Shown: in pieces, positions 4,351 to 54,504 of the stretch
How the letters are laid out: each line of letters begins with the position of its first letter
How positions within the stretch are numbered: the stretch's first letter is position 1
From: a virus
Direction: 5' to 3' (one strand)
Length of the DNA: 64,000 nt
IMG/VR virus record: IMGVR_UViG_3300043571_000443
Coordinates: 10,187 to 74,186 of that record
Translations under genes and position numbers: made by a program
Notes under the pieces: generated by a model
The model's input: only the letters and a program-made list of their open reading frames with translations
The model's database searches: none
What the model was told of the DNA's origin: nothing

Positions 4351-4440
4351 CTCCCACGGGGTGGGGTTGCTCAGGGCAAAGAATAACTCCCACGATGGTG
4401 GGGTGATCTAGCGACCGGAGCGACTCCCACCGAAGTGGGG
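4351..4440 (-). repeat. Three short-period (36-37 bp) hairpin units adjoining the CRISPR-like array
   Basis: CTCCCAC-N3-4-GTGGGG at 4351, 4387 and 4424. Confidence 0.7.
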
Positions 4441-4457
4441 CTGGGCTGCTGGGTTTG

Positions 4458-4832
4458 GAAAAACCCCCACCGAAGTGGAGAGGCGTTTGCGAACAGGCCG
4501 GGGAGGGGCCGGGGGCCGGGGCATGGTGGGGAGAAACCCCCACCGAAGTGGGGAGGTGGTTGCGAGTTGTCAAGGCTGACTTTGAAGCTGGCGTGGCGGT
4601 CGAGAAACCCCCACCGCAGTGGGGAGGTGCTTGCGAGTGTGCTTAGCAGAGCCCTTGATGCCAGCCTAGGCGACGAGAAACCCCCACCGAAGTGGGGTGT
4701 GCTTTGCGAGAACCCGCTGATCGAGGGCTTGACGCTTCGAGACTGGGAGAAACCCCCACCGAAGCGGGGAGGTCTTTGCGAGCAGTTAGGACAAATTGAC
4801 TCGAAGACGGAAAAACCCCCACCGGAGTGGGA
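4458..4832 (-). CRISPR. CRISPR-like array: five 36-nt repeats plus one partial repeat; spacers of 37, 35, 37, 36 and 27 nt
   Basis: Repeats GAGAAACCCCCACCGAAGTGGGGAGGTGnTTGCGAG (+ strand) start at 4458, 4531, 4602, 4675 and 4747, with a partial copy at 4810. Periods of 73, 71, 73 and 72 are not all multiples of 3. Orientation is inferred from the hairpin position. Confidence 0.75.
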
Positions 4833-4931
4833 TCCACCACTGTCACCACAAATTGTCAATGTCCTGCCTACCACTATAGCACACATCCACCAACCTGGGC
4901 ACCCTATAAAAAATTCTCTGAGGGATCCACC

Positions 4932-7453: not shown

Positions 7454-10400
7454 CTATAGCACCAATGCGGTAAGATCGCTGAGCTGGCTATCCAGATTGG
7501 CGCTAGCCAGCCCTACAGCTTGCCGGATCTCAGGACTGGTCAGACCTGTTGTTGCGCCAGTACCAAACACATCAGCGTTTAGGTTGATCGCATAGCTACT
7601 GGCGGCAATCCCGGTACTGCTGCCGGGGAACGTAATACTCCCGCCTGCAATGCTGAGGGGTGTCGTGCTGTTGGTATTTTCAACCTCTACCCGCCCCGCC
7701 TGGTAACTGGTGAACGACAGCGCCTCTAGGGTGTCAAAGCTAGCCAGCCGAATGCCTGCTTCTGTGCTGCGCACCCAGCACCACCAAAGAAAAATATTCT
7801 GAATCAACTCAACGCCGTCAGTATCATTGGAATTGATCTGAAGAGTGCCCACACCCTCTAGGGCAATGGCAAACTGAGATAGGCCAGAGCCCGTATTAGC
7901 CGGGGTTAGTACGCCATATTTATTGCTTTGGATCTGGGTGCTGGCAACAATGGCTTCGTGGATAGGCTCTAAGACGGTTGGGCCGATAGCTGCACCCACG
8001 GTAATACCGCCTGTGATACTCCACACTAGCAGGCTGTCTCGGGTATCTAGGAAGCTGCCAGAGGTCGCTGTTCCGCCAGACTCCGCCCAGTAGGTGGCCT
8101 TAAGCCGTACCAGGGCACCATTGGGCAGGCTTAAGTTTTGGGCAAGGCCGCTGCCGCCAGACACCACGACATTGAACAGTTCAGTCTCAGCGGCTAGAGT
8201 AAAGTCACCACTGCCCTGGCTGGTAAAGTCTACCGGGGTGCTGGGAATATTGGCGATGCTAGCGAAAAGTTTACCGTCGCTCCAGTAATAGAAGCCACCA
8301 TCCTTAAGGACATTACTGGTGGTCGTGGGCAAGGTTGCGCCGCTATTGAGGCTAAAGCGTACCTGGGTCCAAGGGGCAGCGGTGGCAAAGGCCGCAGGAC
8401 GCCCCTGGCTATCATTGCCCAGGGTGATCGCATCGGTGGTGGTATTGATAGCGGTGCTGGCTACGGTGAAGCTTTGCACCCTGGCCGCATAGGCTCTGGA
8501 TCCATCGGCAAAATTAGGTGCAGTGAATCGGATCTGGGAAACAATGATGATCTTGGTAGGGTCGTAGATTAGCCCAGGGTCGCTGTAGGGAATGGTGAGG
8601 GTGAACGGTCCAACATTGTTAGCCGCCACCACATTCGCCCCCGTCTGGAGGATCAGATTGCTGCCAATGGTGGTGTTCTGGCTGATCGCCAGGGTAGCTC
8701 CGGAAGAGACGGTAAAATTATCGTTATAGGTAGCTTTACTGCTAAGCGTCAGAGTGGTGCCAGCGGCCATGGTAAAGCGATAGGTGCCGGTAATACCTGC
8801 CGTGGCCCCAGACAAGGTAAATCCTTCGTTAAATGTGCCCTCGGCGTCGTCGGTAGCTGTGTAGGCGTAGGGGTAAAATTCACCATTGGCATAGCCGGTG
8901 CTGCCGTCGCTATTGCGCAAGCTGATCAAGCTAGCGCCAATCACCAAAATAGAGAGTGCCTGGAATGCGGTGATCGCAGTAAATAGAGTCAGCGCACCAT
9001 TGGCGGAGGTTTTGGTGATGGCCGGGGCAGTGGTATAGCTTTGGGTCAGCAGGTCAATGACCGTATTGAAGCGGTTGAGTTGATTTAGCCTAGCGATCCG
9101 GCTGTTATTGCCAGAGATGAAACTGTTGGCCGCATCGGTGCTGTTGTAGCTCAGCGCTAGGGGTGCGGTATAGGAGGGAATCTGGAAGCTGGATAGGTAC
9201 TCCGGCAACGTATATTGCCTGCTAGTGGGGGCGACCTGAGTGCCCTTCACGTTGACAGTCGCCGTGCCGTCAAAGGCGTCTAGGTTCAGCTCATAAGCAT
9301 TAACGCCAGCGGTGGTCACAAAAGCGATCACGGTGCGGTTAGCCACGGTGTTATGGTAGAGCGCACCTAAAAGTGAGTCGGTAGCAGTAGTATTGTGCAG
9401 CCAATAAAACAATGCTGCGCTGGTGGGCACCGCATAGCCGCTGGAGTGCGCAATGGTTTGGCCGTTGATAGTAATGGTGCCGGTGCCATCAAAAATGTTG
9501 TCAGCAAAGCGGTAGAGCAGGTTAATGGTGTCCCCCGCTACCAGCAGGACTAAATCAGAACCCGCCTTTGTAAAACTTAGATGACGGGGCGTAGAAGCAC
9601 TTAGCCCATTGGTGGTGAAGGTGGCCTTTACTGCTGGAGCGCTTGATACTGTTGCAGCATCAAAGGCGTAGAGAAATAGCTGATTAGTGGTGCTGGTGGC
9701 GATCAAATAGCTAGTGCCAGCTTTGTAATAAAAATCTAGGTCTCTAGCCGTAACATTGACTGAAAATACAGGGGTGGCGATGTTGTAATAGCCAATAGTA
9801 GTTTCGGCGTTGGGCGCAATGCTTGTCCCATTGACGGTCACCGAGCTGGTGCCATTGAAATTGGCAAGTATTAAATTACGATAAAACGTAGCGGTACTGG
9901 TATTGCGAATCGAGGCAAAGCCATTAGCAAGGTCCGTTGATAGGCGGGCAGCGCTAGGAAAGGCTACACTGGCTAACCGCAATCGGGCACTAACAAATTT
10001 GTTGCCAGCCCCCCAGAACTGTAGCGCATCACCAACGGCGACAGCGTTGGTCAGCCCTGGCGCAAAGGTAACCCTAGCTCGGGTGCCTGCATCAACTAGG
10101 TTCGTCCGAGGATTAACCACCGATACATTGTTGCTGGCGAAATTCACCACATAGATCCGATCACTGGTCGGCGCATAGGCAATGGCGAAAGGCGAACTGC
10201 CAACGGTGATAGTGGCTACGACTGCATTACTGACAGGATTAACCACCGATACATTGCCTTCATTCGCCACATAGATCCGATCACTAGTTGGCGCATAGCC
10301 AACGGCGATAGGCCCAGTGCCAACGGTGATAGTGGCTACGACCGCATTACTGACAGGATTGATCACCGATACATTGTTGGCGGTAGAATTCGCTACATAG

Positions 10401-11500
10401 ATCCGATCACTAGTTGGCGCATAGCCAACGGCGCGAGGCCCAGTGCCAACGGTGATAGTGGCTACGACTGCATTAGTGACAGGATCAACCACCGATACAT
10501 TGTTAGCGCTGTTATTCGCCACATAGATCCGATCACTAGTTGGCGCATAGCCAACGGCCCGAGGCGTAGTGCCAACGGTGATAGTGGCTACGACCGCATT
10601 AGTGACAGGATTAATTACCGACACATTCTGGCCGCTTTGATTCGCCACATAGATCCGATCACTAGTTGGCGCATAGGCAACGGCGAAAGGCCCAGTGCCA
10701 ACGGTGATAGTGGCTACGACCGCATTGGTATCAGGATTAACTACCGATACATTGTTGGTGGTAAGATTCGCCACATAGATCCGATCACTAGTTGGCGCAT
10801 AGCCAACGGCGCGAGGCCCAGTGCCAACGGTGATAGTGGCTACGACCGCATTACTGACAGGATTGATCACCGATACATTGTTAGCGCTGTTATTCGCCAC
10901 ATAGATCCGATCACTAGTTGGCGCATAGCTAACGGCGAAAGGCTGAGTGCCAACGGCGATGGTGCCGGACAGTGCAATAATGCTAGCCGCTGACAGGGTA
11001 TGAGTCGTTGCACCACCAGCCACCGTGAAGCTATCGCCTACCGTTGGCGCAGTCTGAAAGGTGCCATTGCCGTTGTTGAGGTCCAGCGTAGTGCTACCCG
11101 CCAATAGGTTAGCGGCAGTCGTCCCGGCATCTACCAAAATGACTGCACAGCCACCCACGACCGTTGATGGGTCAAAGGCATAGCACCAAATATTGCCCCG
11201 ATCTCCAGCGGTTAGCAAATAGCCTACGCCGCCTGAAAAGAAAAATTGTAGGTCAGAGCTAGTCGTGTCATTGGTTTGCCTAAATTGACCTTGGCGATTT
11301 GCTTCAGTAAAAGTGCCGCCATTGCGAAAGTCGCCCCGCCAAAAAGAAACTAGGCTGCCAAGTCCTGCAAACACTAGGCTATTGTTCGGCGCTGCATCGT
11401 TAAACCAATACACTAAGCTTTGATTGGCAAGGATAGGATCAGCCGCATAGGTGGCATTCGCAGGGGTAACTTCAGCCGTCAGGGCGGTATTGACGCTCAT
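7454..11500 (-). CDS. Large tail fibre / receptor-binding protein with YVTN-type beta-propeller repeats
   Basis: 1348 aa; seven ~42-aa repeats of ATITVGTGPxAVxYAPTSDRIYVAN...NVSVxNP. Confidence 0.8.
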   Translation of the reverse strand: MSVNTALTAEVTPANATYAADPILANQSLVYWFNDAAPNNSLVFAGLGSLVSFWRGDFRNGGTFTEANRQGQFRQTNDTTSSDLQFFFSGGVGYLLTAGDRGNIWCYAFDPSTVVGGCAVILVDAGTTAANLLAGSTTLDLNNGNGTFQTAPTVGDSFTVAGGATTHTLSAASIIALSGTIAVGTQPFAVSYAPTSDRIYVANNSANNVSVINPVSNAVVATITVGTGPRAVGYAPTSDRIYVANLTTNNVSVVNPDTNAVVATITVGTGPFAVAYAPTSDRIYVANQSGQNVSVINPVTNAVVATITVGTTPRAVGYAPTSDRIYVANNSANNVSVVDPVTNAVVATITVGTGPRAVGYAPTSDRIYVANSTANNVSVINPVSNAVVATITVGTGPIAVGYAPTSDRIYVANEGNVSVVNPVSNAVVATITVGSSPFAIAYAPTSDRIYVVNFASNNVSVVNPRTNLVDAGTRARVTFAPGLTNAVAVGDALQFWGAGNKFVSARLRLASVAFPSAARLSTDLANGFASIRNTSTATFYRNLILANFNGTSSVTVNGTSIAPNAETTIGYYNIATPVFSVNVTARDLDFYYKAGTSYLIATSTTNQLFLYAFDAATVSSAPAVKATFTTNGLSASTPRHLSFTKAGSDLVLLVAGDTINLLYRFADNIFDGTGTITINGQTIAHSSGYAVPTSAALFYWLHNTTATDSLLGALYHNTVANRTVIAFVTTAGVNAYELNLDAFDGTATVNVKGTQVAPTSRQYTLPEYLSSFQIPSYTAPLALSYNSTDAANSFISGNNSRIARLNQLNRFNTVIDLLTQSYTTAPAITKTSANGALTLFTAITAFQALSILVIGASLISLRNSDGSTGYANGEFYPYAYTATDDAEGTFNEGFTLSGATAGITGTYRFTMAAGTTLTLSSKATYNDNFTVSSGATLAISQNTTIGSNLILQTGANVVAANNVGPFTLTIPYSDPGLIYDPTKIIIVSQIRFTAPNFADGSRAYAARVQSFTVASTAINTTTDAITLGNDSQGRPAAFATAAPWTQVRFSLNSGATLPTTTSNVLKDGGFYYWSDGKLFASIANIPSTPVDFTSQGSGDFTLAAETELFNVVVSGGSGLAQNLSLPNGALVRLKATYWAESGGTATSGSFLDTRDSLLVWSITGGITVGAAIGPTVLEPIHEAIVASTQIQSNKYGVLTPANTGSGLSQFAIALEGVGTLQINSNDTDGVELIQNIFLWWCWVRSTEAGIRLASFDTLEALSFTSYQAGRVEVENTNSTTPLSIAGGSITFPGSSTGIAASSYAINLNADVFGTGATTGLTSPEIRQAVGLASANLDSQLSDLTALVL
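10110..10960 (-). repeat. Near-identical ~126-bp coding tandem repeats
   Basis: Repeated ACATAGATCCGATCACTAGTTGGCGCATAG and CCAACGGTGATAGTGGCTACGAC blocks. Confidence 0.9.
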
Positions 11501-13221: not shown

Positions 13222-13316
13222 CTCCCACCATTGTGGGACATACACCATCTGGCCGAAGCACCCCCACCATTGTGGGGCCTGCACCCTCTGGCCGAGCCAC
13301 CCCCACCGCAGTGGGC
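13222..13316. repeat. Three-copy hairpin array (~39-bp period)
   Basis: CTCCCACCATTGTGGG, CCCCACCATTGTGGGG and CCCCACCGCAGTGGG, starting right after the recombinase stop codon. Confidence 0.8.
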
Positions 13317-22790: not shown

Positions 22791-23885
22791 TCAAGCTGAT
22801 CGCTCGATTACAGCAGATGTCCGCCAATAGTAACTTACCTGAGGATCCGCGCCTAGCGTCGTCAACGTCAAGGTGTTTGACTCTGTGTCTATAATTCCGA
22901 ACCGGTTGCCGCCATCCTTAAGATATGGAATGCAGTAGATCTTTGTACCTACAACAGCAGATGTCCGCCAATAGTAACTTACCTGAGGATCCGCGCCTAG
23001 CGTCGTCAACGTCAAGGTGTTTGACTCTGTGTCTATAATTCCGAACCGGTTGCCGCCATCCTTAAGATATGGAATGCAGTAGATCTTTGTACCTACAACA
23101 GCGGACGTTAACCAGCGATACTGTATTTCCGGATCAGCTCCTAAGTCTACTAACTCTAGCGTGTCTGACTCGGTATCTAGAATACCAAACCGATTACCTG
23201 CTATTGGGCCAAGCGAAGGATCGCCTACACTGCTAAAAGGAATGGAATAAATTTTCATTCCTACGATAGCAGATGTATTCCATGAATATATTATATTAGG
23301 ATCAAGGCCTAATCTTGTTAACATCAATGTGTTTGACTGCACATTTATAATACCAAAATGATTACTTCCAATTAGCGCTACAGATGGAATGCAATAAATC
23401 TTTGTGCCTACACTAATACATGAAGACCAATTGTAAGTTACCTGAATATTCGCAGTTAGCGTGGTTAAGGTTAACAGATCTAATGCCGTGTCTATAATCC
23501 CAAACTGGGTTGTTCCACTTGTGCCAAAAGACGGAATGCAATAAACGCTTGTGCCTACAACAACAGATGCAAACCAGTTATAACTAACCTGAGAATTAAC
23601 ATTTAGTGTAGTCAATGTTAATGAGTTTGATCCTGCATTTATAATCCCGAATTGATTATTTCCGCTTGTGGCGACAGATGGGACACAATATATCTTTGAC
23701 CCTACGACAGCAGATGTAGCCCACTGATAATCAATTTGCGTATCAACTCCTAATGTTTTTAGGCCCAAGACATTTGATTGTGCATTGATAAGACCAAACT
23801 GATTCCCTCCAGAGCCTTCAAAAGGAATGCAATAAATATCGAATTTCTCCCCCCCAAACCATACCCAGCCTAGCTGCCTACCCAT
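22791..23885 (-). CDS. Beta-propeller (kelch-like) repeat protein, probable tail or receptor-binding component
   Basis: About seven repeats of VGTKIYCIP...FGII; visibly AT-richer than its neighbours. Confidence 0.7.
   Translation of the reverse strand: MGRQLGWVWFGGEKFDIYCIPFEGSGGNQFGLINAQSNVLGLKTLGVDTQIDYQWATSAVVGSKIYCVPSVATSGNNQFGIINAGSNSLTLTTLNVNSQVSYNWFASVVVGTSVYCIPSFGTSGTTQFGIIDTALDLLTLTTLTANIQVTYNWSSCISVGTKIYCIPSVALIGSNHFGIINVQSNTLMLTRLGLDPNIIYSWNTSAIVGMKIYSIPFSSVGDPSLGPIAGNRFGILDTESDTLELVDLGADPEIQYRWLTSAVVGTKIYCIPYLKDGGNRFGIIDTESNTLTLTTLGADPQVSYYWRTSAVVGTKIYCIPYLKDGGNRFGIIDTESNTLTLTTLGADPQVSYYWRTSAVIERSA
22811..23098. repeat. Exact 144-bp tandem duplication
   Basis: 22811-22954 equals 22955-23098 (one 48-aa blade). 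Confidence 0.85.
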
Positions 23886-44469: not shown

Positions 44470-44770
44470 GCTGCATCCGCTCGCTCATTGCATCCGCAAA
44501 CCATTCGCGGATCTTGTCTTCGGCATTGTCATAAAAGCGAGTGTTGGAGTCGTCATCCCACTCTTCGTCGTTGAGGTGGGGGACGGTAAGAATGAGTCCG
44601 GGGCTATCGTACAGGTTCCCAACAGAACCCTTGTCCAGGGATCGGTAGGTGCCATCCTCAAACAGCTCAACAACGTAAGCACCGCCGCCCCAGGATGCCT
44701 TTGTGGAAGAATCAACGGTGGCCTCGAAGTCGATGGCCATGAAGTTATCGAAAGCCTTTTGAATAGTCAT
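44462..44770 (-). CDS. Small, very acidic protein in promoter cassette 3, inside the cas operon
   Basis: D/E-rich (NDEEWDDDS); own promoter. Confidence 0.7.
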   Translation of the reverse strand: MTIQKAFDNFMAIDFEATVDSSTKASWGGGAYVVELFEDGTYRSLDKGSVGNLYDSPGLILTVPHLNDEEWDDDSNTRFYDNAEDKIREWFADAMSERMQLA

Positions 44771-44777
44771 CAGTCAG

Positions 44778-44837
44778 TCCTCATAAGTGGTTTGTTCCAT
44801 GCCTTCAATATACCCCCTGCATATCGAACTGTCAACA
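44778..44837 (-). promoter_or_regulatory. Repeated promoter cassette, copy 3
   Basis: TTGACA-17-TATATT; the -35 overlaps the cas6 stop codon; CCACTTATGAGGA leader. Confidence 0.8.
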
Positions 44838-47771: not shown

Positions 47772-47885
47772 AATGCTTGACAAAACTGCCATTATAGTAT
47801 CACAACCCTGGCCAGCCACGACAAAGCCCGCCAGGTGGCCAGCGGGCTGGGGTGGGGGAGTGGGGTGGAGGGGGAGTGTCCTCTT

Positions 47886-48197
47886 TTACTCAAATACGAC
47901 TCGCCGCATCTCCTCTTGCACACCAAGCATTAGTTCTAAAGCTTGGTCAAATGTTCGATTTACTCTGCCCATGCGCTGACGGACATCTGGCTCAACTTCA
48001 GACCCCAAGGCCCTTTTTGCCAATAAATCGAAGATAGCTTCTTCCAAAAGCGCTTGAACGCTAGTATTCTCCTGAGAAGCTATTTCCCGCAGCTTGACGG
48101 AGACCTCTGGATCAAAGCGACCAGCTATCATCTTTTTGTTTCGTCTAGCTTTGTTGGCATCAACATCAAGCATGAAATACAGCTCCATCAGAAACAA
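47886..48197 (-). CDS. Ribbon-helix-helix regulator
   Basis: IAGRFDPEVSVKLREIASQENTSVQALLEEAI. Confidence 0.65.
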   Translation of the reverse strand: MFLMELYFMLDVDANKARRNKKMIAGRFDPEVSVKLREIASQENTSVQALLEEAIFDLLAKRALGSEVEPDVRQRMGRVNRTFDQALELMLGVQEEMRRVVFE

Positions 48198-49413
48198 AAG
48201 TTAGAATTTCGGTCATGTCAGTCAACATCACCCTGTTCTTTTTGGCCATGTTATTCATCCTTGCCATGTTGGGATTTTGGGCCTGCTGAATGCGCCTAGA
48301 GGCATAGGCCTTGTCGTAGAGCGAGTAACCCGCTTGCGTGAAAACACTTTCAACAATGCAAGTAACCGGCAGGATCTTTTTTGTAGAAACATCCCGATAG
48401 TTGGGAGTCATGACAGTGCAAAGCCCTTTGCCCTTTTGAGCCGCTGCACAATTCCTGGCTATGCCTGCCATCGATCTTGCCCACAAGTCAAATTCCATAT
48501 TGGCTATATCGTCAGACCGATCCGAGTACTGGTTGACCACCATGCCATAGTAGGGAATGTCCATCACGATGTAATCAACGTCAGCCACGGGTAGACCTAG
48601 CCTAAGGTCGTTCTGCTGAATCTGATCTGCATAGCGACCCCGGGGGGAAAGGTCGAAGCATCGCAAGTCAATGTCCCATTGGTCGCCAACCATCCATTGA
48701 GCCCGGTTTTCCCAGACGTTTATAATCTGGCCGCTACCCGCCATCGGTGCGACTACCTTAGCGCCCGGAAAGGTGTAATACCAAAGGCAATTTGCGTAAA
48801 TATCCCCTGGGATATAGCCATGGGAATGATCATTCTCCGGCAGCCGATCAAAAGCAACTTGAGAAAAGTTCCAGTTGTCAGTAGGCTTTATGATCGGGCT
48901 AAACTCAGGCTCTTTGCCGGTGCGCGGGTTCAGGTACAAAGGGATATTGTTCTCTATCTTGTACTGCTTGACCACGTTGGTGACAACGGCTGCAGTTGGC
49001 TTTGCCTCTGACGTAAGCACAGCCTCAAGCACCTCTGCCTTTTGCTCTTGACTTAGACCAGATGTAGCTATCGGACGAACAGAGCCTTCAGATAAGCCCA
49101 GCTTATCAATATTGGCTTGAATGATTACAGGATCGGCGTTTTTGGTGACAATTGGCACCGAGTTAACTGTGTCTGCGAACGCAATTGATCTGTTGACATA
49201 GTTGCTGCCTAAGTTCCATCTTTCTTGGCAATAGGCTTCAAAGGTTGTAAACCCCAGGTCTTGATAATGCCGATCGTCCCGGATCTCCTTTAAGGCCATG
49301 GCAAGAATATACAGCTTGCCGATTGCTTCCCCAATGTGATCCTCAAGCTGCTTTAGCCGGTCTTGCTTGCTTAAGCCTGCCCCTGGCGGCAGTTGAGCAA
49401 AAGTCATACTCAT
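48166..49413 (-). CDS. DNA methyltransferase-like protein with N-terminal helical domain
   Basis: VVAPMAGSG (motif I variant) and MDIPYY (DPPY variant); N-terminal LKEIRD...FTTFEAYCQERW phage domain. Confidence 0.6.
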   Translation of the reverse strand: MSMTFAQLPPGAGLSKQDRLKQLEDHIGEAIGKLYILAMALKEIRDDRHYQDLGFTTFEAYCQERWNLGSNYVNRSIAFADTVNSVPIVTKNADPVIIQANIDKLGLSEGSVRPIATSGLSQEQKAEVLEAVLTSEAKPTAAVVTNVVKQYKIENNIPLYLNPRTGKEPEFSPIIKPTDNWNFSQVAFDRLPENDHSHGYIPGDIYANCLWYYTFPGAKVVAPMAGSGQIINVWENRAQWMVGDQWDIDLRCFDLSPRGRYADQIQQNDLRLGLPVADVDYIVMDIPYYGMVVNQYSDRSDDIANMEFDLWARSMAGIARNCAAAQKGKGLCTVMTPNYRDVSTKKILPVTCIVESVFTQAGYSLYDKAYASRRIQQAQNPNMARMNNMAKKNRVMLTDMTEILTFVSDGAVFHA

Positions 49414-51047
49414 TCTGCGTAGTCCTCCGGGTTCTGCTCTTTGCTGATCAGAAACGGAGAAGGAAGCATTCTGGCCTTGACGTAAGTAGGGGAACCGTAA
49501 ACCCTTACAAAGGCATCGCCAGGACAGAACGTTGTAGTTTGACCTGCTGCATAATCATTACCTTCTAGGGCTTTGATCGCCATCGGTTTAGCGCCATGCC
49601 TCATGATGATCCGAGTGTTGCAGTAGTTCACAATGTTGTCAGGTATCTCGGTAAATGCCTGGACACAGAAGAACGAACCTACGTGCTTAGACCTGCCTTT
49701 CCGGGTGATCTCCTCAAAAGCTTTGACAGCAATTTTCCTTAAAGACTCCCCGCCATTAAAGATGTCCTGAGCCTCGTCGATGATATTGGCGATCCATGCC
49801 TCGATCTTGCCGCTGGCCCTTCCCTTAAGCTGGAAGTTAAGGAGAGTCACGGTAAACATTGCATATTCAGACGAAGAGCAATTGGTGACGTTGATGACAT
49901 TAATCCTTCCAGCTTGAAACACCTCAGAATTTTCAAGGAAGTTAGAGTAGTTCTTTTTCTGGATCTTGAGAATACTGGAAGATCCCGCATTGTCCCTATC
50001 AATCCACTTTGGTACCCGGCAAGGCAGCTTATAAGCAGTCGCCAAGATAGCTTGGTGGACATTAGCCCCCTTGAAAATCCCTCGACCCATCTCAGTAAGC
50101 TCTCTACCTCCGTTCTTTTCCCTGGTTACAGTATTGTTGAACCATTCCATGAAGTCCTGGAGAGACCAATATTGATCTTTGTGGTCTTCCGCATAGGCAT
50201 CAAACAGCAAGCCAAAAACAGCCCGCTGCTTGTCGTCGCTATCTCCCGGGAACAGGCAAGTTTCCAGAAGAAACTCTCGGTTAACCTCCGAAAAAGGAAT
50301 GCTGATCACGTTTTCGCCTGGCTTAGGATCGCCAAGTGTCCACATCTGGACAACCTCTTCAGGAAATCCAGCCGGATCTGGCCCAAAATCGTTAGGACTC
50401 GTCAAATCCTGATAGTCAGGCTTATGATCGAGCATAAATACACAGTGGCCGGGATAGGTGCCATTAGCTTCAAACCCATTCAGAACAGATACTATTCGGC
50501 CGACTGTCTCCGTTTTACCGCTGCCAATGGTACCCGCAACTATCGCATTATGGTCAATGACCCGTTTATTAAGCGCTACAGGAATTTCAGTGCCGTCAAT
50601 ATGCCCGATGACGTTAGAAGCCTTGGCCTTAGGAAGCCTGAGAGCAACTGTTACATTTAACTCGCAGGCCTTTACCGCCTTCAATCCGTCCTTTGGACGG
50701 TAAAGTATAGGGGAAGCAACGCCGTCCACAATCATCCCAATAGGTTCCGTCACATACATCTGGACAGTGCTGCCAAGAAAACTTTGCTCTAGCTTTCCAG
50801 CGGCTACTCTGCTCATGGCTGCTGTTAATCTAGGATCTTTCCGGTCCAGTCCACCCAACGGCAAGTTCCTGTTAGGTTCTTTAACGACTAAAACCCAAGT
50901 GTCCTTGTCGCTAGAGATCTGCAGAAAAGTGTTGACAGGAATAAAAACATTGGACTTTTTGTCAAAAGACAATAGTTTTATGACTGCAGCATCAGTACCT
51001 TCTTCGTCAGACCAAACAATCAATGCGTTTAATGGATCAGAAGACAT
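49410..51047 (-). CDS. herA: HerA-like (DUF87) ATPase
   Basis: Walker A AGTIGSGKT, LDHKPDY, Walker B IIDEAQ, arginine finger RKGRS. Confidence 0.8.
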   Translation of the reverse strand: MSSDPLNALIVWSDEEGTDAAVIKLLSFDKKSNVFIPVNTFLQISSDKDTWVLVVKEPNRNLPLGGLDRKDPRLTAAMSRVAAGKLEQSFLGSTVQMYVTEPIGMIVDGVASPILYRPKDGLKAVKACELNVTVALRLPKAKASNVIGHIDGTEIPVALNKRVIDHNAIVAGTIGSGKTETVGRIVSVLNGFEANGTYPGHCVFMLDHKPDYQDLTSPNDFGPDPAGFPEEVVQMWTLGDPKPGENVISIPFSEVNREFLLETCLFPGDSDDKQRAVFGLLFDAYAEDHKDQYWSLQDFMEWFNNTVTREKNGGRELTEMGRGIFKGANVHQAILATAYKLPCRVPKWIDRDNAGSSSILKIQKKNYSNFLENSEVFQAGRINVINVTNCSSSEYAMFTVTLLNFQLKGRASGKIEAWIANIIDEAQDIFNGGESLRKIAVKAFEEITRKGRSKHVGSFFCVQAFTEIPDNIVNYCNTRIIMRHGAKPMAIKALEGNDYAAGQTTTFCPGDAFVRVYGSPTYVKARMLPSPFLISKEQNPEDYAE

Positions 51048-51049
51048 GG

Positions 51050-52156
51050 TTATTTCCCTCTAAAATCGTCACTGTCAATCAAATCGAAAGCCTGGCCAGG
51101 GTTATGTTCCATCACCACTGACTCAAGCCTGGCCTGCACACTACTCCTGTCATGGCAGCCATCTAGAAAAGCATCTACATGGTCAAGCAAGAAAGGAATC
51201 TCGTGTCCAGGCGTATCAGAACGCTCCCCGTACATCATTGCCAACGCCCAATGCAGCTGATCAATGCGACACTCGAAACCGAAATACTTAGACTGCCCTG
51301 TAGTTGGATTACCTGGACGATACACACCCCTGCAATATTTGGCGGGCACCCGCTCCATCCATGCAGCCTTGTTCTTAGACGAAGCCCAGGTTTTATTCCT
51401 TTTCTGAAGCAGAGTCCGGCAATCCGTTATGATGTAAGCCTCTCCATCTTTAAGCACCTGCCCAGAAATCTGCTCCTCAGGAGAAGAGGCAGATAAATTC
51501 TTGATCACACCAACCACACGCTTGCCAGACTTCAAGATTTTTTCTGTCAGCTTTTCCCCATCTGGCTGAGTAATCAAATTCTGAGTAAGGATGGGGCCGT
51601 CTACAATAACCGACTGGCTAGAACAGTTAAGAGCCAGCTCCCTCTCTTTGTACTCTCGGAACGTGTTAGGCCACGACCTGTCTTGAATGGTCAACGACTC
51701 AATCAACTGATCAAAGGAAAAACCTTTTTTGCCAGCTAAAGCTGGGGTCGCCTGCGCTCTAAACACTTGAGGGTCAGACATGCTAGTGGTGTACCCTATG
51801 CCAGCGACAATAACCTCATAAAACTGCCCAACCAAAGTCTGAATCAAGGGACTGTCGGTCGCATCTATTGCAAAAAGATCGTCCCTATACTGCTGAATTT
51901 CAGGATCGTAGTAGTCAAACCAATCTTGCAGGTTGCAAAGAAATCCAACATCAGGCAAAGAATCCTTAGAAGATTCGTTCCACTGATCTGGGGTCATAAA
52001 GCAACCCTCGACAAAATGCCTCATCTCTGCCAATGCAGGCTGCGACCTTTCAAACAAATCCAGTACTTCTGCGGTCTGATAATGCAACGGATCGTTGTAA
52101 ACGTCGTCAGTAATGTCTTTGCAGCCTGCAAGAATCTTTGAAAACTCAGACGCCAT
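51050..52156 (-). CDS. nurA: NurA-like nuclease
   Basis: FAIDAT, VIVDGPI, VVGVIKN and IPFLLDHVD motifs; directly upstream of herA. Confidence 0.65.
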   Translation of the reverse strand: MASEFSKILAGCKDITDDVYNDPLHYQTAEVLDLFERSQPALAEMRHFVEGCFMTPDQWNESSKDSLPDVGFLCNLQDWFDYYDPEIQQYRDDLFAIDATDSPLIQTLVGQFYEVIVAGIGYTTSMSDPQVFRAQATPALAGKKGFSFDQLIESLTIQDRSWPNTFREYKERELALNCSSQSVIVDGPILTQNLITQPDGEKLTEKILKSGKRVVGVIKNLSASSPEEQISGQVLKDGEAYIITDCRTLLQKRNKTWASSKNKAAWMERVPAKYCRGVYRPGNPTTGQSKYFGFECRIDQLHWALAMMYGERSDTPGHEIPFLLDHVDAFLDGCHDRSSVQARLESVVMEHNPGQAFDLIDSDDFRGK

Positions 52157-52251
52157 CTATAAAACTCCAGTCTGCGTACTGTCAACAAAGTCATGCTAAC
52201 ACAACTAAGCTTAAAGTTGGCGGCTATTATTTGGATTTTATAACTTTTGGG

Positions 52252-52506
52252 TTCCCCCACCCCTGTGGGGCCTGCACCATCTGGTTGAACCACCCCCACC
52301 GCAGCGGGGCAGTTAACGCCCTTCAGCAGGACACACCCCCACCCCGTGGGGCCTCTGAAAAGCTACCGATCCACCCCCACCATCATGGGACACCATAACC
52401 CTGTAGGAGTCACCCCCACCCGGTGGGGCACAGGAGCTAAACCGATCAACTCCCACCGCAGTGGGGCCTTTATCCCGAGTGACTCACCCCCACCAGCGTG
52501 GGGCCT
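52252..52506 (-). repeat. Seven-unit hairpin array (period about 37-43 bp) with I-E-like repeats and short linkers
   Basis: CACCCCCACC-N2-3-GTGGGGC(C) units at about 52254, 52291, 52334, 52372, 52411, 52448 and 52485, with non-identical linkers. Confidence 0.8.
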
Positions 52507-53384: not shown

Positions 53385-53674
53385 TAGGCTGGCGGCGCAT
53401 AGCCAGCTTGGGACTCGAACACTAGCCGCCCGCTAAAAGACAGCTCGTAAAACAGCGTGTACTGCTCTAGCGGCCAGGGCCAGGGCTTGCCGGGGGGAAC
53501 CAGCATGTCGCCCCACTTACGCCACAGCCAGACAGCGGCAGCAGCCGCTGGATCCGGCTCTTCGCTAAAGTCAGGGATCTGGCACTCGAAGCTTTGAGAC
53601 ATTCCAGGCTCAGTGGCAACAACCACATGCACTGGCAGAAAAGGTAATGGCATGATTAATCTCCACAAAAACAA
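53339..53674 (-). CDS. Hypothetical protein
   Basis: Within the operon. Confidence 0.45.
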   Translation of the reverse strand: MFLWRLIMPLPFLPVHVVVATEPGMSQSFECQIPDFSEEPDPAAAAAVWLWRKWGDMLVPPGKPWPWPLEQYTLFYELSFSGRLVFESQAGYAPPAYWRSPVYNCRQEVAV

Positions 53675-54504
53675 GATTGTCGATTGTCGTCAAAAACGTC
53701 TAACACTGGCTGGCGCAGGATTTCGGCCAATGGACGGGTGCCAAAACTAGCCCCAACCCGCTCTTCCTGTGCTAGCCACCATTGCAAGTTTTCGGGTTCC
53801 AACACGGCTTGGCGTTGCAGCTGCACCGCTGTATGGTGAAAGCAAAAACGACAGTTGCTAATTTCAGGGAACACCCAGCCCTTACGGTTCCAGAATTGGC
53901 GGATAGTGTTGTGGCTGATCCTGTCGTTGTACAAAGGAAACTGGGGCACTCGCCATTCGACGGTGGTATACTGCCAGCGCTTATCAGGCGTTAGCCCACA
54001 AGCCACTGGCGCTTTTACCTTGTCGTTGTCGCAGTTCCAGCCTTCTACCCGTCTGGGTTCATCCCACCTAAAGCCAATATTCATCAGCACCGGATCGCGG
54101 TCCCACCAAAACCGCCATACATGCCAAAAGATCGGCATGATCTTTTGCTGAATAGTGCAGAACCGCAACCGCTTATTAGGTAGCATCGGGCCACCTGAAC
54201 GGCAGCCAGGAAGATCGGTTTGTTGCGAAACAAACCGATCTAGGCTGTATTCTGCCGCCACCCATTGGATCGGCTTGCCTAGCTCTTGCTCTAGCCTTAG
54301 GACATTGACCAAAGTCTGGTCAGCTTCATGGGTAGCAATAAAGCCAGGAATCCTAGCCTGAGCCTCCCGCAGCAGGCCAGAATCCTTAGGTGCTGATGGC
54401 GCATGGTCAGTCAGGACTACTGAAAAAATGTAGTAGTCCGTTGGGTAGTGAAACGCCATATAAGCGCTCGTCTTGCCGCCGCTGACTGATGTAACGCTTT
54501 TCAT
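53656..54504 (-). CDS. PAPS-reductase-like (PP-loop) phage protein
   Basis: SVSGGKTS, RFCT...K, IGFRWDE, SNCRFCF. Confidence 0.75.
   Translation of the reverse strand: MKSVTSVSGGKTSAYMAFHYPTDYYIFSVVLTDHAPSAPKDSGLLREAQARIPGFIATHEADQTLVNVLRLEQELGKPIQWVAAEYSLDRFVSQQTDLPGCRSGGPMLPNKRLRFCTIQQKIMPIFWHVWRFWWDRDPVLMNIGFRWDEPRRVEGWNCDNDKVKAPVACGLTPDKRWQYTTVEWRVPQFPLYNDRISHNTIRQFWNRKGWVFPEISNCRFCFHHTAVQLQRQAVLEPENLQWWLAQEERVGASFGTRPLAEILRQPVLDVFDDNRQSCFCGD

Follow-up and report, generated by a model that had tools for sequence, protein, structure and literature searches.

We describe a cassette of four genes on a 64,000-nucleotide stretch of viral DNA (hereafter the window), which spans bases 10187-74186 of the 74,186 bp IMG/VR virus record IMGVR_UViG_3300043571_000443. 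The cassette encodes a protein resembling the nuclease NurA, a HerA-type ATPase, a methyltransferase (MTase) and a ribbon-helix-helix (RHH) protein, and it lies directly upstream of a type IV CRISPR-cas operon. We consider it likely that the cassette is an autonomous, horizontally acquired defense system of the restriction-modification (R-M) kind which the phage carries as cargo in a hairpin-bounded hotspot. Genes 1 to 3, which recur together in other genomes, are referred to as the trio. The four genes are:

51050..52156, minus strand: gene 1, predicted divergent NurA-fold nuclease, 368 aa (structure model)
49410..51047, minus strand: gene 2, HerA-type hexameric translocase ATPase, 545 aa (Pfam, PDB profile, Walker motifs)
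48166..49413, minus strand: gene 3, predicted two-domain MTase, 415 aa (fold and motifs)
48197/48173..47886, minus strand: gene 4, last gene of the cassette, Arc/antitoxin-like RHH protein, 95-103 aa (PF20605, PHROG 3180)

Genes 1 and 2 are separated by 2 nt, genes 2 and 3 overlap in an ATGA, and genes 3 and 4 overlap by 8-32 nt. The GC content of the cassette is 47.4% compared to 56.7% for the remaining window, and its GC content at third codon positions is 0.43-0.54 compared to 0.68-0.75 for the cas genes. The RHH gene resembles the trio in composition (GC 46%). Judged by its base composition the cassette is of foreign, horizontally acquired origin, and the difference in composition argues for separate origins of cassette and cas operon. 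An initial annotation of this DNA, made from the sequence alone, had described four tightly packed, AT-richer genes in the orientation of the cas operon and had named their products. Open reading frames (ORFs), spacing and GC content agree with this arrangement, and all four gene identities held up: the HerA by Pfam and PDB profile, the MTase by fold and motifs, the RHH protein by PF20605 and PHROG matches, and NurA by structure alone.

The product of gene 1 had no match at E<=0.01 in Pfam (including the NurA model PF09376), NCBIfam, PADLOC or PHROGs, and its profile retrieved neither NurA nor any other protein from the PDB sequences. We built an AF2 model on nine homologues (pLDDT 83). Its best Foldseek match was NurA of S. 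solfataricus (2ygk, E 5e-7), and the D. radiodurans HerA-NurA complex and TdpAB were among the other leading matches. VIA-align gave Z scores of 16.5, 16.3 and 16.1 against three NurA structures (for 2ygk_A, Z 16.5, 261 residues were aligned with a root mean square deviation of 4.0) and 14.8 against TdpB, whereas EndoV and Argonaute PIWI scored Z ~10, about 6 Z units below the NurA entries. All 13 family members compared, which come from several phyla, share D98, E168, E171, D186, H318 and D328, and in the model these residues lie where strands end or helices begin. Their order, D-E-D-H-D, resembles what we take to be the metal site of NurA. The model points to a very divergent NurA-fold nuclease with an RNase H/PIWI-like fold over most of the protein. 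NurA is thus upheld by structure prediction but not by hidden Markov models (HMMs), as no family model matched. The family is small, with 142 representatives at 50% identity among 1.84 billion proteins.

Gene 2 encodes a bona fide HerA. The protein matched PF01935 (1.2e-10, 42.4 bits, cut-off 23.2) and PF05872 (5.4e-6, 25.8 bits, cut-off 22), and the best PDB sequence match of its profile was S. solfataricus HerA (4d2i, 3.3e-18). Walker A (G175-S-G-K178), Walker B (D424-E425), the arginines R449/R452 and the sensor glutamine Q463 are invariant. Because its scores against the NCBIfam equivalog models were far below cut-off, we regard it as a distinct subfamily of HerA. The HerA and mad8 models of PADLOC gave weak, partial and generic matches (1e-8 to 1e-12; mad8 7.6e-8). 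HerA and NurA-like genes are paired in every locus long enough to show it. Complex prediction for the two proteins, with alignments for each, returned a score of 0.00, which is no answer and neutral on binding.

Gene 3 combines two dissimilar parts. The N-terminus (~1-165) is helical, variable and unalignable between phyla, whereas the C-terminal domain, a predicted class I Rossmann amino-MTase, shows 52-60% identity across phyla and carries an invariant motif I (P-M-A-G-S-G) and motif IV (D285-I-P287-Y288). The closest structures to residues 170-412 were Trm14 (VIA Z 16.6), TrmN (16.5) and Trm11 (15.1). Matches to the PADLOC MTase_II models were weak (6.9e-6 and 4.4e-5), and some sources label relatives of gene 3 'ParB family'. 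In two other loci (L059 and L064) an N6/N4 DNA methylase (PF01555) occupies the third position instead of a gene of this type. That a bona fide DNA methylase can take the place of gene 3 is the strongest in silico argument for a DNA-modifying role of gene 3 and for modification as an integral part of the system. The N-terminal domain is predicted to bind DNA and would then set specificity.

To explore how widely the trio is distributed, we scanned 185,579 species genomes with an alignment of the MTase and obtained 28 loci. The order NurA-like-HerA-MTase was found in 24 of them; three others were cut by contig ends and one was decayed. An independent scan of metagenome contigs with an alignment of the NurA-like protein yielded 29 loci (the same scan with a single NurA-like protein as query found nothing). 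Of these, 17 showed all three genes in this order and eight were truncated by contig ends, while in L050 and L052 the MTase was lacking or the locus decayed. A second viral contig, L002, carries the same trio with 29%, 28% and 52% identity. The closest relatives, with 54-70% identity, are on Logan/ENA contigs (P0002-P0005, P0010, P0020-21). Judged by record titles, the hosts in the genome set are mostly filamentous cyanobacteria, joined by Dehalococcoidia, Chloroflexia, Caldilineaceae, Latescibacterota, Thiomargarita and another gammaproteobacterium. These data show that the trio is a conserved three-gene operon.

The neighbors of the trio vary between loci and include an Mrr-type endonuclease (Mrr_cat), a large type IIG/I RM fusion, HsdR, AAA_21/AAA_15 ATPases and a ParE toxin-antitoxin pair. 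In ten cyanobacterial loci (L004:10855-12840 and nine others) the gene that follows the MTase encodes a Schlafen/AlbA_2-HATPase protein of ~650 aa (Schlafen/AlbA_2, HATPase_c_4 and Fic-like_C domains), which may be an optional sensor or regulator subunit.

The fourth gene of the window's cassette is a different case. The RHH protein matched PF20605 (6.3e-15, 55.5 bits, cut-off 27.2) and the Arc-like repressor family PHROG 3180 (3.4e-6). No toxin partner is adjacent to it, no other surveyed locus has it beside the trio, no similarity to it was seen in the small ORFs that follow the MTase in L023 and L030, and a viral scan with it as query found nothing. Its sequence cluster consists of near-identical copies only, and of the two forms that were looked up, one occurs on 36 contigs and the other on 17, drawn from several data sources. 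Most likely the protein controls transcription of the cassette, in a role comparable to that of the controller proteins of R-M systems.

Downstream of the cassette and in the same orientation lie cas11, csf2, csf3, a Cmx6-type cas6, a PAPS-reductase-like cysH and csf1. Five viral contigs (L031-L035) carry the csf operon of the window and all five are devoid of the trio. Four of these, the sister phages L031-L034, are 93-97% identical to the window in nucleotide sequence on both sides of the cassette, and their Cas proteins are 94-99% identical. Similarity between these four phages and the window is lost at 47871-47878 and picks up again at 52336-52411. Between these points they hold three different, mutually unrelated cassettes of ~2.9 kb, which are also AT-richer (GC 47.5-52%) than the backbone (57-59%). 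As the sister phages carry other cassettes at this site, the trio-bearing module is one cargo among several that can replace each other, and the cas operon is independent of it. The borders of the slot, with the leader of the cassette, are:

52252..52506, minus strand: upstream border, array of GCCCCAC-N4-GTGGGGGTG hairpin units, the number of which varies between sister phages
52157..52251, minus strand: AT-rich leader of the cassette, without counterpart in the sister phages, presumed to hold the promoter
47825..47885, minus strand: downstream border, C-rich tract followed by a hairpin of 10-bp stem and 4-nt loop (47848-47825) and UUUGU

On the upstream side, the homology of the sister phages to the window ends inside or just past the hairpin array. 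The hairpin family to which its units belong (CCCCAC-N4-GTGGGG) is found 19 times in the window, spanning 3571-63364, against 0.38 expected, with clusters at 4388-4832, 13262-13316, 52255-52503 and 60422-60501; the units may be sites of recombination or RNA processing. The downstream hairpin ends 5 nt ahead of the GTG of cas11 and is identical in all four sister phages, whichever cassette is upstream. The whole 101-nt stretch at this border is no more stable in folding than its shuffles (z -0.27). A scan for consensus promoters and terminators was uninformative for the minus strand at both borders, and no promoter was called in the leader.

The cargo of the sister phages was inspected as well. 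L031:4947-7740 encodes a PADLOC PDC-S13/Bro-N protein and two unknown proteins, L032:2652-5497 an unknown protein of 543 aa and a protein of 376 aa with a ParB-like N-terminus, and L033:6289-9028 (L033 and L034) unknown proteins of 555 and 218 aa. These could be candidate defense or counter-defense genes. L035:888-5586 stems from a more distant relative (Csf2 80% identical) and has the order cas11-csf2-cas6-cysH-csf3-csf1, with far more divergent Cas6, CysH and Csf3 (29-48% identity). A second, small variable spot is located inside the cas operon: the 362-nt gap between cas6 and cysH (44470-44831) has a lower GC content (52%), and L032 lacks homology there (breaks at 44470 and 44784).

The position of the cassette raises the question whether it belongs to the type IV system. 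The type IV operon encodes no nuclease or helicase of its own, and the cassette might be the effector arm of a nuclease-less type IV-B-like Csf complex, in which NurA-HerA would be recruited by crRNA guidance, the MTase would mark self and the slot would be an exchangeable effector bay. The two blocks are co-oriented and adjoining, with 66 nt between the RHH stop and the cas11 start and no clear independent promoter, so read-through is possible. HerA and NurA are known as accessories of type III CRISPR systems, and a PADLOC 'Type III coevolved' HerA model matched weakly (6.5e-9). Accessory effectors likewise behave as variable cargo beside a conserved cas operon. Nevertheless, four sister phages combine nearly the same cas operon with unrelated cassettes and the L035 operon also lacks the module. 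Moreover, a search of the 10 kb around each of the 58 other trio loci (28 genome, 29 metagenome, 1 viral) gave no match to the window's Cas11, Csf2, Csf3, Cas6, CysH or Csf1. A type IV Cas7 HMM gave weak, partial matches in 12 of the 28 trio genomes, none of which overlaps the trio locus. With the Csf2 of the window as query, neither five trio genomes nor 401 genomes sampled from the phylum to which a trio-bearing Microcoleus belongs (cyanobacterial by record title) yielded a Csf2. The separate origin suggested by base composition and the conserved terminator-like hairpin between the two blocks also speak against an effector arm, and the literature searched holds no link between type IV-B and HerA. 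Taken together, we regard this explanation as very unlikely.

These data bear directly on the initial annotation, which had proposed that type IV-B could obtain its missing nuclease and motor from the module and had named an independent superinfection-defense island as the alternative. The 58 trio loci and five csf operons surveyed revealed no second co-occurrence of the module with csf genes and contradict the former proposal, whereas the cassette swapping and the csf-free loci favor the latter. The description of the module as 'fused' to the type IV genes holds as far as the two adjoin, which is adjacency only. The initial annotation also suggested that the cas genes have their own -10 box. 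The TATAAT at 47797-47792 lies within the longest cas11 ORF and is not conserved as such, the sister phages reading CATAGT, TATAGT or CATGGT, but a TGnTAYYAT-like element that overlaps it (at about 47803-47795) is conserved, and of the four substitutions three are at third codon positions. Transcription of cas11 may start from a promoter of its own or depend on read-through across the hairpin. We found no evidence for the cassette as an evolved part of the type IV operon.

At 4457-4840, ~38 kb from the cas operon, lies a CRISPR-like array in which 5-6 drifting repeats of 36 nt (GAGAAACCCCCACCGAAGTGGGGAGGTGCTTGCGAG) alternate with spacers of ~36 nt, and its repeat hairpin CCCCAC-N4-GTGGGG has the same stem as the dispersed hairpins. 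Possession of both cas6 and a candidate array makes this type IV-B-like system atypical for IV-B. One could imagine that the slot upstream of cas11 is an exchangeable effector bay of such a Cas6- and array-equipped complex, with NurA-HerA-MTase as one of several alternative recruited effectors. This would provide a degradative output for type IV-B and would account for the presence of unrelated cassettes at one and the same site in the sister phages, but we regard it as very unlikely.

A role in the phage's own DNA metabolism has also to be considered. NurA-HerA might resect DNA ends for recombination-dependent replication or degrade host DNA, with the MTase shielding phage DNA from host restriction. 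Orphan methylases are commonly encoded by phages. The trio adjoins replication genes in both viral records (a DnaB-like helicase at 54504-55862 in the window and a DnaB-family gene downstream of the trio in L002), and NurA-HerA is classically an end-resection machine (PMC12977600). However, the sister phages possess the same replication genes without the trio. Copies of the trio are nearly all chromosomal, occur in at least five phyla, often by restriction or abortive infection genes, and lie outside phage replication modules. Only two records among 2.9 million IMG/VR contigs were found to contain the trio. We consider a function in phage DNA metabolism unlikely.

Comparison with known systems places the trio near several of them. 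The closest parallel is TdpABC of thermophiles, which consists of the HerA-like TdpA, the NurA-like TdpB and one modification gene and relies on phosphorothioation (PMC12914056). Both systems follow the same three-gene logic, and TdpB (TdpAB structures 8wfd/8wet) ranked high among the structures that matched the NurA-like protein. In contrast to TdpABC, the third gene here encodes a predicted S-adenosylmethionine-dependent amino-MTase with a putative N-terminal DNA-binding domain and not a phosphorothioate-synthesizing TdpC; sequence similarity is undetectable (profile of the NurA-like protein against PDB sequences), and the trio hosts are mesophilic cyanobacteria, Chloroflexota and phage. We rejected membership in TdpABC, as the HerA/NurA pair is present but the third gene is an MTase and not of the TdpC type. 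The NurA-HerA end-resection complex of archaea and bacteria (2ygk, 3tai, 4d2i, 7f6d, 9x1m) shares with the cassette the predicted nuclease fold, the HerA match and adjacent, translationally coupled genes. Unlike that complex, the pair in the cassette is unmatched by PF09376, unlinked to mre11/rad50, obligately linked to an MTase and mobile.

MADS discriminates self from non-self by methylation and combines a MAD7-MAD8 ATPase-nuclease module with a methylase (PMC13662399). Sir2-HerA, DUF4297-HerA and MADS all pair a HerA-family ATPase with an effector, as the trio appears to do. The effector here is the NurA-like protein, in contrast to Sir2-HerA and DUF4297-HerA, and MADS has eight genes (mad1-mad8) in contrast to three core genes. 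Membership in MADS was rejected: the HerA matched mad8 partially and no other mad model matched, which reflects generic HerA similarity. The accessory genes of type IV-B systems, such as cysH-like genes, were a further candidate, as the cassette is directly upstream of a csf operon with cas11 and a cysH-like gene; this membership was rejected as well, given the absence of csf genes from the vicinity of the 58 loci and the other cargo in the sister phages. We suggest that the trio would work like TdpABC and more loosely like the HerA-effector and MADS systems while being a member of none of them. Full-text literature searches and the defense HMM libraries searched held no description of a NurA-HerA-methylase system, and PADLOC, Pfam, NCBIfam and PHROGs contain no model for the NurA-like protein or the gene 3 MTase.

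If, by analogy with NurA-HerA and TdpABC, the cassette is an R-M-like defense system, the MTase would mark resident DNA, both the host chromosome and the genome of the phage or prophage. A hexamer of HerA, docked on a dimer of the NurA-type nuclease, would load onto unmarked incoming DNA and, using ATP, thread and degrade it processively, and methylation would block loading or progression of NurA-HerA. On a phage, such an activity could serve superinfection exclusion or competition with co-infecting elements.

A number of points weigh against an R-M-like defense system. The gene order of the cassette, with the nuclease before the methylase and the regulator last, is unusual for an R-M unit. 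Gene 3, whose presumed substrate is DNA, matched no Pfam DNA-methylase model, and its nearest solved folds are tRNA m2G methyltransferases and not DNA methylases. The putative equivalence of the catalytic residues of gene 1 and NurA is based on their conserved order and their position in the model. Several chromosomal copies of the trio, some of them in Microcoleus, lie among housekeeping genes and not in obvious defense islands. For host and lifestyle, the recombinase genes of the phage and the capsid similarity to cyanophages described below are the only clues. Finally, split or decayed copies exist (L009, L010, L012, L017, L018, L027, L050 and L052), and HerA is split or decayed in some of them.

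Such copies, together with the rapid turnover of the slot and a foreign composition that has not been ameliorated, would fit a selfish or decaying cargo without current function, either a hitch-hiking addiction-type R-M-like element or a recent block that is being lost. Against this, all four ORFs of the cassette are intact, all invariant catalytic residues are present, the catalytic domains are conserved between phyla, and the looked-up RHH forms recur on the contigs mentioned above. We hold a functionless cargo to be quite unlikely and maintain that an autonomous R-M-like defense system probably accounts best for the cassette.

The record that carries the cassette has direct terminal repeats, and the window codes for a large terminase, a portal, a major head protein and a tape measure protein in addition to the DnaB-like helicase. 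Two tyrosine recombinases and one serine recombinase are encoded in the record. The capsid protein shows <=44% identity to those of Microcystis phage Mwe-JY26 and cyanophage PSS2. The window had no match among plasmids (PLSDB, megablast), and tblastn with the HerA against GenBank phages gave no match, so that a close relative was not found among these phages. No match was found to the HIP1 motif (GCGATCGC), which served as a marker for cyanobacteria. The record represents a novel tailed phage, which possibly infects cyanobacteria.

Further features of the phage were observed outside the cassette and the cas operon. Beside the DnaB-like helicase, 53656-54504 on the minus strand encodes a protein of 282 aa that matched PADLOC SspD (PP-loop ATPase, 2.1e-9) and had no Pfam match; in addition to the product of the cysH-like gene, it may be a second PAPS-reductase/PP-loop-type enzyme of the phage. 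Tandem repeats of 13 nt and 21/42 nt (TGTCAATCTGACACCCCCCCCA-like) at 56292-56441, within or adjoining a 304-aa ORF upstream of DnaB, could be iterons of a replication origin. Long tandem repeats at 10109-10964 (period 126/378 nt, in a 1348-aa ORF) and at 22810-23192 (period 144 nt, in a 364-aa ORF) probably encode repetitive tail-fiber or structural domains.

For type IV-B systems the outcome is negative but useful, as adjacency of the cassette should not be taken to mean that the missing nuclease has been found. If our interpretation of the cassette is correct, it would represent a methylation-based NurA-HerA restriction system that is absent from the HMM libraries and papers searched, and a third immune use of the HerA motor after Sir2/DUF4297-HerA and TdpABC. 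Such a system would bring a naturally variable specificity domain. Though rare, the family reaches across five or more bacterial lineages and also occurs on phages. The fast-turnover, hairpin-bounded slot next to a phage type IV CRISPR operon offers a convenient natural system in which the shuffling of defense cargo and its cooperation with CRISPR may be studied.

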